58,961 nucleotides of DNA, filler included, from Malassezia furfur (GCA_052055015.1; 5 parts of 5 records of this genome joined end to end with filler, not necessarily neighbours in it), one strand, 5' to 3'; counted from the whole stretch's first letter, positions 118 to 56,607 are shown. The notes: generated by a model from the sequence alone, not told the origin. Made by a program: numbers and translations.

Positions 118-389
118 GTGGCGGAGCATGAGCGCCAGCACGGCGGCGTCGAGCTCTGTGTCGTTCTGCGGTGAGTGTGCGTGCGACGGACCATTGTGCG
201 CCCCTGTGCGGAATGGATGGCGTCCCCGAGCGTGGACCGCAGCGTGTCCATCGCGCGCTCGTCCGACTCGGGCGCCTGCTCGAGCTGCTCAAGGATCTGC
301 TGGACCGGCTCGCGCACGCCCGGGTCGGCGTGGGAGCGCCCCAACAGCGCACACAGGTACGCCTGCGTCGCGGGACGCGCCGCGGCCAT
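1..389 (-). CDS. Hypothetical protein, 5' part (runs off contig start)
   Basis: ATG at 389 (MAAARPATQAYLCALLGR...), putative 26-nt intron 166-191 (GTCCGT...CTCACCGCAG), frame stays open to position 1; head-to-head with PAF1. No family recognised. Confidence 0.5.
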   Translation of the reverse strand, partial: MAAARPATQAYLCALLGRSHADPGVREPVQQILEQLEQAPESDERAMDTLRSTLGDAIHSAQGRTMVRRTHTHRRTTQSSTPPCWRSCSATATIRKSPVRGRHAGGWWAPPPVPARPPHGRGLVICVSS

Positions 390-445
390 GCTCGGTTGAC
401 CGTGCGTCGTGAACACGTGACTTGGATCCGACGACCACCCCGACG

Positions 446-2516
446 ATGGCGGCGCGTCGGAAGCAGCGGTACGTGCACCTTACTCACCCGTAGCGACCTC
501 GTGGAGCGCGTGCGGTACCCCAACCCGCTGCCGGAGCTGCCGTATGCGCCCAAGCTCGTGCACATTCCAGCACCGCAGCCCAACTACGCGTCGCCGGTGT
601 ATGCCCAGCGCATCGCCGAGTCGCAGCAGCTGCCCGTCGCGGTCGACGCCGAGGCGGGCATGCCGCTCGACCTCGCGTGCATGGAGTCGCTGTGGCTCGC
701 CGACGGTCGCGGCGCGGTGACCACCTCGTACCCGCTTGACGAGGCGCAGCTGCACGACGACGACGCGTTCCTCCTGTCGGACGACGTCGCAGCGCGCACC
801 CCGGGCGTGATCGAGGGCGCGCAGCCCGCACCCGCGCAGCCCGCGGACGTGACATGGCTGCGCCGCACCGAGTACCTCGGCGCGGAGCAGCGCAAGCAGC
901 GCCAGGCCGAGCGCAGCACACGCGCGCAGCCGCTCGACACCTCGCGCGACGCGCAGATCGCGCGCATCCAGGAGGGCTTTGCCGTGGCGAATGCGCCGCT
1001 CGCCGAGGTGCGGCACCCCAGCAAGCCGGACGTGCATGCGGTCGACGCGTACGAGCTGCTGCCCGACCCCGAGACGTGGGCGACGCCGATGCACGTCGTG
1101 CGCTTCACCACGGCGCTCGGCCGCGCAGACGTCGAGGACGACGTGCGCATGGACACCGCGGTGCTGCGGCCCTACTCGGACGCGACCGGGCAGCGCGTGT
1201 CGCTCTACCTCGCGAGCGGCGAGACGCTCCCGCCGTACGACGACGGCACGGGCGAGGCGCCCGATCCGCAGGCCGCCGCGGACGCCGACGCCCAGGTGCC
1301 CGAGGCGGAGCGCGTGCGTCGGCAGGACGTCGGCGCGCTGCGCTACCTCAAGCGTCGCCGCCTCGGCGTCTACCCCGAGGGGCCGCACGCCGACGCGGCG
1401 CCGGTCGATGCGAACGAGGCGGCGACCGCGTTCCGCCACGTGCGTGATCTGGAGCCGCTCGACCAATTGGCGTCGCTCGGAAACCAGCTGGTGCTCGTGC
1501 TCGACGACGGGCACCCCGACGCGGCGCCGGAGCTTGCGTCGATCTCCACCTCGGGCACGGTCGCGGCGCAGGCGGCGCGACGTGACGAGGGCGCCACCGA
1601 AGACACCGACGCGCTCTTTGACGCCGACGAGGCGCCGGCCCCAGCCGAGTCGGACGTGTCGACGACGCTTCCGCCGCAGACCGACGTCGACCGCGTGCGG
1701 CAGCGTGCCGTGCCGCCCCTCACGCTGGGGCGCAAGGTGGCCTACTACCACCCGATCGATATGCGCTACAGTCTGCAGATCCGGCGGCAGCGCAAGGCGG
1801 AGATGCACCGCGCCGTGCCGTACGACGACTTTTGGCACCGCGTCGCGCTCGGCAACCGCGCAGCGACGGAGCGCGAGCGTGCACGGCGCATGCATGCGCG
1901 TGCGCAGGTTGATCAACTCGACCTGGCCGGCGTCGAGCTGGAAGAGAGCGAAGACGAGGCGGACGCCGAGGGGGAAGAAGAGGCGCACGAGGCCGAAGAC
2001 GCCCACAATGCGCCTGCATCCCTGCACCACGGCGACGCGGGCGACGAGCGCGACGACGACGAAAACGACCAGGGCGCCGTCGAGGAGGATATGGACCACG
2101 CGACGAGCCCGGCGGCGGAGCGCCACGACGAGCGCGCAGCCGACCGCGATGCGGACGCCGCGCATGCGGCCGGCGTGCAGGCCGGCTTCGACGCGGTGGC
2201 CGCCGGCGACACGCCGATGGCCGCCGCGCAAAAACAAGGTCAGGCGGTGATGAACGCCGCGGCGCAGTCCACGACGACGGCCGGCGCCGATCCCAAGTGG
2301 GATGCGCTGCACGGCGACGAGCACGACGAGGAGCGGGGCGCGGCCTCCGATGCCTCTGACGCGTCGGACGCCGCGTCGGACGCCACCGACTCGGACGCGT
2401 CTGAGATCGATGCGGACGCCGAGCTGGCGGCGCTGCGCGACGAGGCGCAGGGCGCGGGCGACGACGTGCCTGCCGAGGGCGGGCGGCGGTCGCGACGTAG
2501 AGACGCAGCAGCATAG
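446..2516 (+). CDS. PAF1: RNA polymerase II-associated factor Paf1
   Basis: Exon 1 446-468, 25-nt intron 469-493, giving MAARRKQRDLVERVRYPNPLPELPYAPKL (Paf1 N-terminal motif); also VTWLRRTEY and HPSKP motifs and a long acidic tail. Confidence 0.85.
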
Positions 2517-55861: not shown

Positions 55862-55921
55862 CCAGACCGCATCGCGCCGGTCGTAGGGACCCAATTCGTA
55901 ACCTCCACTCGTTCGTCCGCG

Positions 55922-56607
55922 ATGACGCAGGATCCCAGGGCTGCCGCCGGCGCGGCCATCGGCGCAGAGCTGGACAAGCGCGGCGTGATGTTTTGTGTTG
56001 TGTGCGCGAGCAACCAGAACCGCTCCATGTTTGGGCACAATGCGTTATTGTACGTGGTGTTTCCTTCTCTTCTTACACAGAAAAGCCGGCATGCAGGTGA
56101 GCTCCGCCGGCACAGGTTCTGCCGTGCGGCTGCCAGGCCCAGCGATTGACAAGCCCAACATCTACACGTTCGGTACACCGTATGACTACATGTATCAGGA
56201 CCTTATGAAAAAAGACCCGCGGCTGTACGAGGCGAATGGGCTGCTGTCGATGCTCGACCGGAACCGGCGCATCAAGACGGCGCCAGAACGGTGGCACGAC
56301 TCACGCAAGGTCGCCGACATTGTGATTACGTGCGAGGAGCGGTGCTTTGACAGTGTGTGCGAGGACCTCTTGAGCCGGCGTTCCGAGCTCAATCGCGCGG
56401 TGCACGTCATCAATCTCGAAATCAAGGACAATCACGAAGAGGCCGACATTGCGTCACGCGCGATTCTCGCGTTGGCCCGCAAGGTACGTGGTACACTCAC
56501 ACCAGATTGAGGCTGCACAGGACATCGACGAAGAGATTGACGGAATCCTCGAGGAGCAGCAGCAATCTTTCCCTTACCCTCTGCTGCACACCGTAGCATA
56601 TTATTAG
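55922..56607 (+). CDS. SSU72: RNA Pol II CTD phosphatase Ssu72
   Basis: [10 protein letters not shown] (CX5R), [27 protein letters not shown]; introns 56050-56080 (31 nt) and 56484-56505 (22 nt). Confidence 0.96.

Follow-up and report, generated by a model that had tools for sequence, protein, structure and literature searches.

The stretch of DNA analysed here, referred to as the window, comprises 58,961 bases of Malassezia sequence in which protein-coding genes are interrupted by 24 very short GT-AG introns. Introns of 22-35 bases, the range found, are among the shortest known in any organism. The window consists of five joined pieces of 11,776 nt rather than a single locus, so distances and gene neighbourhoods that span the spacers joining the pieces are meaningless. 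Genes are also cut by these spacers; for example, the N-terminus of an SMC gene artificially adjoins an NTE1-like gene. The spacers are located as follows:

11777-11876: N44-TTAATTAATTAA-N44 spacer
23616-23715: N44-TTAATTAATTAA-N44 spacer
35452-35551: N44-TTAATTAATTAA-N44 spacer
47285-47384: N44-TTAATTAATTAA-N44 spacer

Codon-usage scoring and Pfam searches indicate ~35 densely packed genes in the window, of which roughly 15 contain introns, giving 24 introns per ~59 kb. The G+C content ranges from 51 to 71% along its length. The closest named proteins are Cdc1/Pol31 of Malassezia brasiliensis (96% identity, one exon) and a protein of Malassezia furfur CBS14141 (99%), and the organism is a Malassezia of the GC-rich M. 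furfur / M. brasiliensis clade. Scans of the window for Rfam families and transfer RNAs returned none of either, and no small nuclear RNA (snRNA) genes were found in it.

The intron catalogue was rebuilt from a strict pattern that is blind to reading frame, GT[AG]NGT-N4-14-CTNA[CT]-N0-4-YAG, applied to both strands. This pattern occurs at 20 sites, compared with a mean of 1.18 expected from 100 second-order Markov simulations (sd 1.07, max 4). Nineteen of these sites are in the sense orientation within a gene and connect two frames with a high G+C content at third codon positions (GC3). The twentieth, a 21-nt site at 6555-6575, was rejected as it is antisense to the Pfam-supported coding region of mL59; one spurious site is about what chance predicts. 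A further five introns (166-191, 5681-5715, 29790-29823, 40435-40457, and 56050-56080) were added through a relaxed 5' site and reading of the sequence. A loose GT..AG scan gave 2469 frame-compatible pairs, nearly all of them in-frame coding sequence, and was uninformative before filtering. The resulting 24 introns consist of five of 22 nt, six of 23, six of 25, three of 26, and one each of 28, 31, 34, and 35 nt. Their median length is 25 and their mean 25.2, with 21 shorter than 30 nt. None is shorter than 22 nt even though the scans admitted lengths down to 18 nt. In the list below, "strict motif" refers to the pattern above, and L001 and L002 are two contig stretches from other Malassezia that are described further on.

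166..191, minus strand: 26-nt intron, GTCCGT..CTCAC-CG-CAG, in an unnamed open reading frame (ORF) at the window edge; it joins two coding-potential segments in phase 0, and its support is frame and motif, with no Pfam match to the surrounding ORF
469..493, plus strand: 25-nt intron with the strict motif, after the 7-codon first exon of Paf1; the downstream exon begins at profile position 1 and the frame switches to a GC3 of 0.93
5681..5715, minus strand: 35-nt intron of Pan2; phase 2, joining 183 and 1046 codons, with PAN2_N profile positions 16-73 upstream and 140-301 downstream
14838..14859, minus strand: 22-nt intron of Pol31/Cdc1, splitting PDTL-W-SYPF; DNA_pol_E_B profile 1-179, then 182-207
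15695..15716, minus strand: 22-nt intron of Pol31/Cdc1, phase 0; DNA_pol_D_N profile 1-65, then 64-129
16144..16166, minus strand: 23-nt intron with the strict motif, after which Dus3 has 16 codons left; its orthologues in L001 and L002 lack the intron and are colinear
18317..18339, minus strand: 23-nt intron after the 13-codon first exon of Dus3; L002 has an intron at the same codon and phase
20777..20801, plus strand: 25-nt intron of an IPP-2/Glc8-like gene; its phase agrees with the next intron over a 131-nt exon, and the exon downstream begins at IPP-2 profile position 1
20933..20955, plus strand: 23-nt intron of the same IPP-2/Glc8-like gene; IPP-2 profile 1-36 upstream and 53-126 downstream, GC3 0.83/0.85
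24707..24729, minus strand: 23-nt intron in the P-loop region of an SMC gene (..AV-I-GPNGSGKS); SMC_N 31-134 begins at residue 1 of the downstream exon
29790..29823, plus strand: 34-nt intron, GTTTGT..CTAAT-CATG-CAG, separating the signal-peptide exon of an S10 serine carboxypeptidase from the body of the protein; it was read directly from the sequence, and Peptidase_S10 profile 17-417 falls within the downstream exon
35651..35678, minus strand: 28-nt intron with the strict motif in a small ORF cut by a spacer; phase 1, joining 33 and 50 codons, supported by frame and motif, and splitting what is presumably a WH2 actin-binding motif (..GKTLK-K-VQTSDRSAP) like those of verprolin-type N-termini
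37097..37121, minus strand: 25-nt intron of Exo70 with 17 codons left after it; once spliced, the C-terminus aligns colinearly with orthologues
37178..37199, minus strand: 22-nt intron of Exo70, covered by the same orthologue comparison
39223..39247, plus strand: 25-nt intron of a protein tyrosine phosphatase (PTP; NRYTNVLP-Y-D), GC3 0.95/0.89; Y_phosphatase profile 28-232 begins at residue 8 of the downstream exon
40239..40260, minus strand: 22-nt intron with the strict motif in a Yop1/HVA22-like gene; phase 0, joining 58 and 96 codons
40435..40457, minus strand: 23-nt intron of the Yop1/HVA22-like gene, GTAAGC..CTGAC-GC-TAG; it restores phase continuity between the neighbouring introns
40522..40546, minus strand: 25-nt intron of the Yop1/HVA22-like gene; TB2_DP1_HVA22 profile 44-67 begins at residue 1 of the downstream exon
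47573..47598, plus strand: 26-nt intron with the strict motif near the N-terminus of a kinesin; its phase agrees with the next intron over a 282-nt exon
47881..47906, plus strand: 26-nt intron in the kinesin P-loop; kinesin profile 27-88 ends the upstream exon, the split codon supplies position 89, and the downstream exon matches 90-327 from its first residue
51598..51622, minus strand: 25-nt intron with the strict motif in an unnamed gene; its phase agrees with the upstream intron over a 525-nt exon
52148..52170, minus strand: 23-nt intron with the strict motif in the same unnamed gene, for which there is no Pfam match; phase 1, joining 49 and 180 codons
56050..56080, plus strand: 31-nt intron of Ssu72; the profile match 2-21 reaches the end of one exon, and 23-158 runs from residue 1 of the next
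56484..56505, plus strand: 22-nt intron of Ssu72, phase 0; the last exon matches profile 157-189 from residue 1, the phase agrees over a 403-nt exon, and the match in the stop-to-stop frame of the preceding exon overruns the exon end by 2 residues, to profile 158

An earlier note on this DNA had listed 25 introns, of which 24 are recovered here with identical length classes and over the same span, from 166-191 on the minus strand to 56484-56505. Its naming of Malassezia is also correct. The five introns of 22 nt that it placed at 14838-59, 15695-716, 37178-99, 40239-60, and 56484-505 all have GT..AG ends at those positions. The remaining claim, of an intron of 46 nt, found no support, as both candidates of that length fail. 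One (5681-5726) would use a different donor for the 35-nt Pan2 intron, and in the phase that retains the long upstream frame (180 codons) a TGA follows directly at the junction. The other (27118-27163) has weak signals with a poor 5' site and would remove the ATG of an intact GNAT ORF. Candidates at 26532-26562, 43709-43750, and 54325-54357 were also rejected as they do not join coding frames.

The 24 introns share a compact set of signals. All begin with GT and end with AG. Their 5' hexamers are GTACGT (13), GTAGGT and GTGCGT (3 each), GTATGT (2), and GTCCGT, GTTTGT, and GTAAGC (1 each), with G at +5 throughout, and agree with the extended 5' splice site consensus of U2-type introns (GTRNGT-like). 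The branch motif is CTGAC in 12, CTCAC in 9, CTTAC in 2, and CTAAT in 1, while the acceptor is CAG in 22 and TAG in 2. The gap between branch motif and YAG is 1 nt in 13 introns, 2 in five, 3 in three, and 4 in three. The architecture proposed in the earlier note is therefore borne out, with GTRYGT in 18/24, a spacer of 6-11 nt between hexamer and branch motif in 21/24, CT[CG]AC in 21/24, and then 1-4 nt followed by YAG in 24/24. The absence of a polypyrimidine tract, claimed alongside it, holds as well, since there is no room for one after the branch site; a T-rich stretch is present only in the 31-nt Ssu72 intron (56050..56080). U12-type (minor) introns are recognised by a rigid ATCCTT-type 5' splice site and a TCCTTAAC-type branch site. 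None of the 24 hexamers or branch motifs fit these signals, and a minor-intron assignment was rejected.

Distances within the introns depend on taking the branch A as the last A of CTNAC or CTAAT. Measured in this way, the distance from the 5' G to the branch A is 15 nt in one intron, 16 in seven, 17 in seven, 19 in four, 20 in two, 25 in two, and 28 in one. From the branch A to the 3' end there are 5 nt in 13 introns, 6 in five, 7 in three, and 8 in three. The separation of ~16-18 nt between 5' splice site and branch A that had been proposed is supported if the motif-assigned A is the branch point, with 15-17 nt in 15/24 and 15-20 nt in 21/24.

Protein-level evidence for splicing was obtained by translating the exons separately and then scanning them with Pfam for profile coordinates on either side of each junction. 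Coordinates continue across both junctions of Pol31, that of the kinesin P-loop, and both of Ssu72, and the profiles are compatible with a splice in SMC, PTP, IPP-2, Pan2, Paf1, and Yop1. Residue-level support from orthologues or profiles is available for two introns each in Pol31, Exo70, Dus3, Yop1, and Ssu72 and for one in kinesin, with weaker profile support for 6 further introns. The clearest case is Pol31, where the three joined exons form a stop-free protein of 451 residues, 438 of which are identical to a 451-residue M. brasiliensis entry. The spliced product aligns over both junctions with orthologues from Malassezia, Dacryopinax, Mortierella, and birds. The junction at 14838..14859 is colinear in 6/6 orthologues, and exon-1 tblastn matches end exactly at 15717 in 7/8. 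Once the 22- and 25-nt introns are removed from Exo70, its C-terminus is colinear with the proteins of M. psittaci, Malassezia sp. CBS 17886, and Auriscalpium. In Yop1 the M. psittaci protein is ungapped over the 25- and 23-nt junctions, and at the former (40522-40546) the M. furfur CBS14141 protein is also ungapped. At the 22-nt junction (40239-40260) the M. psittaci alignment is gapped and uninformative.

Comparison with other Malassezia provides a further line of evidence. A metagenome scan with the Pol31 alignment identified the two contig stretches L001 and L002, of which 7.3-kb stretches were compared. L001 has a G+C content of 59%, and L002, at 70%, is 87-93% identical to M. caprae Pol31. 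The state of the four Pol31 and Dus3 introns is as follows:

15695..15716, first Pol31 intron: 22 nt in the window; a different 23-nt intron with the same signals at the same codon in L002; none in L001, where the spliced sequence is continuous
14838..14859, second Pol31 intron: 22 nt in the window; absent from L002 and from L001
18317..18339, Dus3 N-terminal intron: 23 nt in the window; 23 nt at the same position in L002; absent from L001, which is colinear
16144..16166, Dus3 C-terminal intron: 23 nt in the window; absent from L002 and L001, whose continuous sequence equals the window's spliced product

L001 therefore lacks all four introns, and L002 carries 23-nt introns at two of the four sites. 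In both, the Dus3 C-terminus is encoded without interruption (..W-H-F-T-P-K-H-R-S-N-A..). The reverse situation is found in a PCI-domain gene, which has four introns of 22-23 nt in L002 and is uninterrupted in the window and L001. All six L002 introns are 22-23 nt, showing that this size class is not peculiar to the window's species. An interruption that is either there or precisely missing at one and the same codon is the classical mark of an intron, and this identifies the interruptions as real introns. The pattern also points to loss or gain of introns since these Malassezia lineages split. Judged on sequence, the existence and positions of the introns, their motif architecture, their length distribution, and their turnover between species can be taken as demonstrated. 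The earlier observation that intron removal restores reading frames is likewise upheld by the frames themselves, by Pfam continuity, by colinear orthologues, and by presence and absence at identical sites.

A further property of the catalogue is that its 24 lengths include no multiple of three (3n; binomial 5.9e-5). Lengths of 24 and 27 nt are empty although 23 and 25 nt are the modes. The deficit persists in the subset found without reference to frame, with 0/19 multiples of three and a probability of 4.5e-4 = (2/3)^19. The two sub-distances, 5' end to branch A and branch A to 3' end, are paired solely in combinations whose sum is not 3n. When they were shuffled among the introns (200,000 shuffles), 4.3 3n introns were expected and zero occurred in 0.4% of shuffles. 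None of the 6 L002 introns is 3n. The missing lengths would fit a model put forward for other organisms with short introns, in which selection favours introns that cause a frameshift when retained, and this may be why such lengths are avoided.

The set as a whole very probably represents ordinary, constitutive U2-type spliceosomal introns that have shrunk to the apparent lower size limit of this lineage. Each intron would consist of little beyond three signals: the 5' hexamer (mostly GTACGT), a C/G-rich spacer of 6-11 nt, and CTNAC followed by 1-4 nt and YAG. U2 would pair with CTNAC and bulge out its last A, which would then attack the 5' splice site and generate a lariat loop of ~16-18 nt. 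The first AG after the branch A, at a distance of 5-8 nt, would serve as the acceptor and be selected without a polypyrimidine tract. The floor of 22 nt (16 + 1 + 5) may then be a steric limit of the spliceosome. From this scheme we infer the identity of the branch A, the size of the lariat, and the order of recognition.

Some observations weigh against this account or parts of it. The presumed branch A is a motif assignment, seven introns (166, 20777, 29790, 35651, 47573, 51598, and 52148) were accepted on frame and motif, and the 3n result comes from a small sample (24 introns plus 6 in L002) with a catalogue partly built by restoring frames. Boundaries are a further concern, as a minority of the introns could use a distal AG or another GT, in which case some of 22-23 nt would really be 31-47 nt and the mode would be overstated. 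The Yop1 protein of M. furfur CBS14141 (P0066) lacks residues exactly at two junctions: 3 at 40239-40260, which fits a 31-nt intron through an in-frame alternative acceptor (CAG 9 nt further), and 8 at 40435-40457, which implies 47 nt rather than 23. In Pan2 a 44-nt variant with an alternative donor preserves the same frames as the 35-nt form. Against this, the Yop1 protein of M. psittaci keeps the 8 conserved residues that the 47-nt version would delete, and orthologues or profiles pin down the exact residue at the junctions in Pol31, Exo70, Dus3, kinesin, and Ssu72. The proximal AG is moreover required wherever the frame discriminates, as boundary shifts that are not multiples of three break the ORF and all 24 lengths are non-3n. 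Misplaced boundaries in a minority of the introns are rather improbable. That the interruptions are not introns at all, and instead represent assembly errors, pseudogene frameshifts, or programmed frameshift sites, is effectively refuted. The 24 interruptions carry one three-part signal on the sense strand where chance would give ~1, at matching codons other species either have segments of different sequence that carry these signals or precisely lack them, and public entries for the proteins of relatives give the spliced form.

A different reading accepts the introns as real and proposes that the early spliceosome itself has been remodelled, with U2AF and/or SF1 lost or altered or the bridging between U1 and U2 changed. 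It draws on the argument that U1 and a U2 bound to a branch site 16 nt away could not sit together normally, and on the lack of a polypyrimidine tract. The short 5' splice site-to-branch distances (15-17 nt in 15/24) and the 1-4 nt left before YAG are consistent with it. So is C at position +4 in 17/24 5' splice sites (GTACGT, GTGCGT, and GTCCGT), which is unusual for pairing with the 5' end of U1. Nothing in the window bears on the machinery, however, there being no snRNA genes. Precedents elsewhere also speak against remodelling. U2AF1, U2AF2, and SF1 are all kept in Stentor, whose introns of 15-16 nt have their branch A 5 nt from the 3' end (PMC9505925), and myxozoans with median introns of 22 bp keep U2AF1/2 and a conserved branch-binding region in U2 (PMC13644364). 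Yarrowia combines the branch and acceptor signals with an otherwise ordinary yeast spliceosome (PMC2911113). Altered U2AF or SF1 recognition, as suggested in the earlier note, is speculation, and published precedent argues against its necessity. A remodelled spliceosome appears unlikely, and ordinary U2-type splicing at the lower size limit is the preferred explanation.

The introns have consequences for gene annotation. It had been claimed that standard gene finders miss them, which is true in part. An Exo70 database entry of 628 aa (P0048), apparently the window's own gene call, reads through the 22-nt intron at 37178-37199 and ends in 19 unrelated residues, while orthologues end like the spliced model and unlike P0048. 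The Yop1 entry of M. furfur CBS14141 suggests that introns of 47 and 31 nt may have been annotated where the window has introns of 23 and 22 nt. However, the entries at NCBI for Pol31 of M. brasiliensis and for Exo70 and Yop1 of M. psittaci contain the correct short splices. Gene calls that are naive to introns or use default parameters mistranslate such genes, and the protein databases of a medically relevant skin fungus are affected. A separate difficulty is seen at 11879-14599, where overlapping stop-free frames of >900 codons occur, one per strand. According to Pfam, the minus strand carries a phosphodiesterase-type domain (~12347-12580) and the plus strand a PCI/PSMD3-like region (~14000-14560). 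This double ORF illustrates how G+C-rich DNA gives long spurious ORFs that mislead ORF-based gene calls.

Two other features of the window were observed. The G+C content drops from ~65-70% to 51-54% across ~9 kb, at about 26500-35450, over genes for a GNAT acetyltransferase, a class-3 lipase, and three tandem S10 serine carboxypeptidases. This island resembles a group of secreted-hydrolase genes whose composition sets them apart from the rest of the window. The single intron found there is longer and AT-richer (34 nt, GTTTGT..CTAAT). An ORF on the minus strand at 40982-42085 contains a Mala s 1-like allergen domain (PF22701, E 4.8e-57).

Introns of 22-26 nt are near the shortest known for any spliceosome, and a free-living, transformable yeast with hundreds to thousands of them and clear signals would be a convenient test system. 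Questions suited to such a yeast are the minimum spacing between 5' splice site and branch point, acceptor choice 5 nt from the branch, and whether frame-shifting upon retention shapes length. Malassezia might be an overlooked yeast model of minimal-intron splicing, culturable and genetically tractable, with a hard floor of 22 nt, strong G+C-rich signals, and 3n lengths that are absent and not just depleted, although this proposal is tentative and on balance doubtful. If true, it would mean that early spliceosome recognition has adapted to signals too close for the textbook arrangement of U1, U2, and U2AF. It would also make surveillance of retained introns a dominant selective force on fungal intron length, and introns of 22-23 nt at differing sites between species would signify active turnover of introns this short.

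The shortness of Malassezia introns is itself already published and built into current annotations, and only the details are new. The curated annotation of M. sympodialis contains 5350 introns with a mean of 30 bp, 99% of which have RNA-seq support (PMC5389616). Introns of M. restricta average 37.2 bp with a median of 30 bp (PMC9241646), and an annotation of this species used a minimum intron length of 15-20 (PMC6473144). A review of the genus mentions "very short introns" (PMC7426719). A MAKER annotation of M. globosa gives an average of 76-79 (PMC4634964), which shows that annotations differ widely. These reports describe the same phenomenon in the same genus, and in their available portions they give means and medians only, for clades other than the more GC-rich one of the window. 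The novelty claimed in the earlier note is weakened by these means and medians of ~30 bp and by the statement in the review. A length mode, the signal architecture, a 22-nt floor, and an analysis of 3n lengths are all missing from the available portions of the papers. A literature search for the signal architecture, length mode, 22-nt floor, and 3n avoidance of Malassezia introns found summary statistics only, which is weak evidence as most subscription journals lay outside it. The details that appear undescribed, namely the 22-nt floor, fused signals in a G+C-rich context, total 3n avoidance, and turnover between species, are of moderate interest. Malassezia is also missing, in the available text, from a list of lineages with sub-30-bp introns that names ciliates, microsporidia, and dicyemids (PMC13644364), and from a statement that a 23-nt Trichomonas intron is among the shortest known (PMC12316389).

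With the bulk of its introns below 30 nt and 3n lengths depleted, in a small sample, the window falls into the ultra-short regime known from ciliates, nucleomorphs, microsporidia, Trichomonas, and myxozoans. Ciliates have introns of the same size range with 3n lengths depleted (PMC5014332), those of Paramecium having a mean of 25 nt (PMC8997360). In the 15-16-nt introns of Stentor the branch A at position 10/15 lies 5 nt from the 3' end, as in 13/24 introns here (PMC9505925). Ciliate introns differ in being AU-rich (75.6% in Stentor) with a weak branch consensus, whereas those of the window are 61% G+C with a strong CTNAC and 5' hexamer. The lack of the A+T-rich composition typical of ciliate cases is a difference and not a bar to working alike. 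Type B introns of Trichomonas vaginalis are similar in length (23-25 nt) and in having the branch motif a few bases from the acceptor (PMC12316389). Unlike here, they number a handful in an intron-poor protist and consist of extended, near-invariant motifs with poly-T filler, in place of a variable G+C-rich filler. The introns of myxozoans and dicyemids have medians of 22-27 bp, no polypyrimidine tract, and a putative branch A near the AG, and U2AF is retained in these animals; their splice-site motifs are reduced, in contrast to the strong motifs of the window (PMC13644364). A fungal comparison is with Yarrowia lipolytica (PMC2911113), in which introns are much longer, with only 204 of <=60 nt and a short class of 41-60 nt, and have GTGAGT rather than GTACGT at the 5' end. 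The 3n deficit in Yarrowia is mild (29.4%) compared with 0/24 here, and is tied there to nonsense-mediated decay of transcripts that retain introns. In Yarrowia the branch point is merged with the 3' splice site into one combined signal, the two lying on average 1 nt apart, and the introns of the window carry the same type of combined signal, with no polypyrimidine tract between its two parts.

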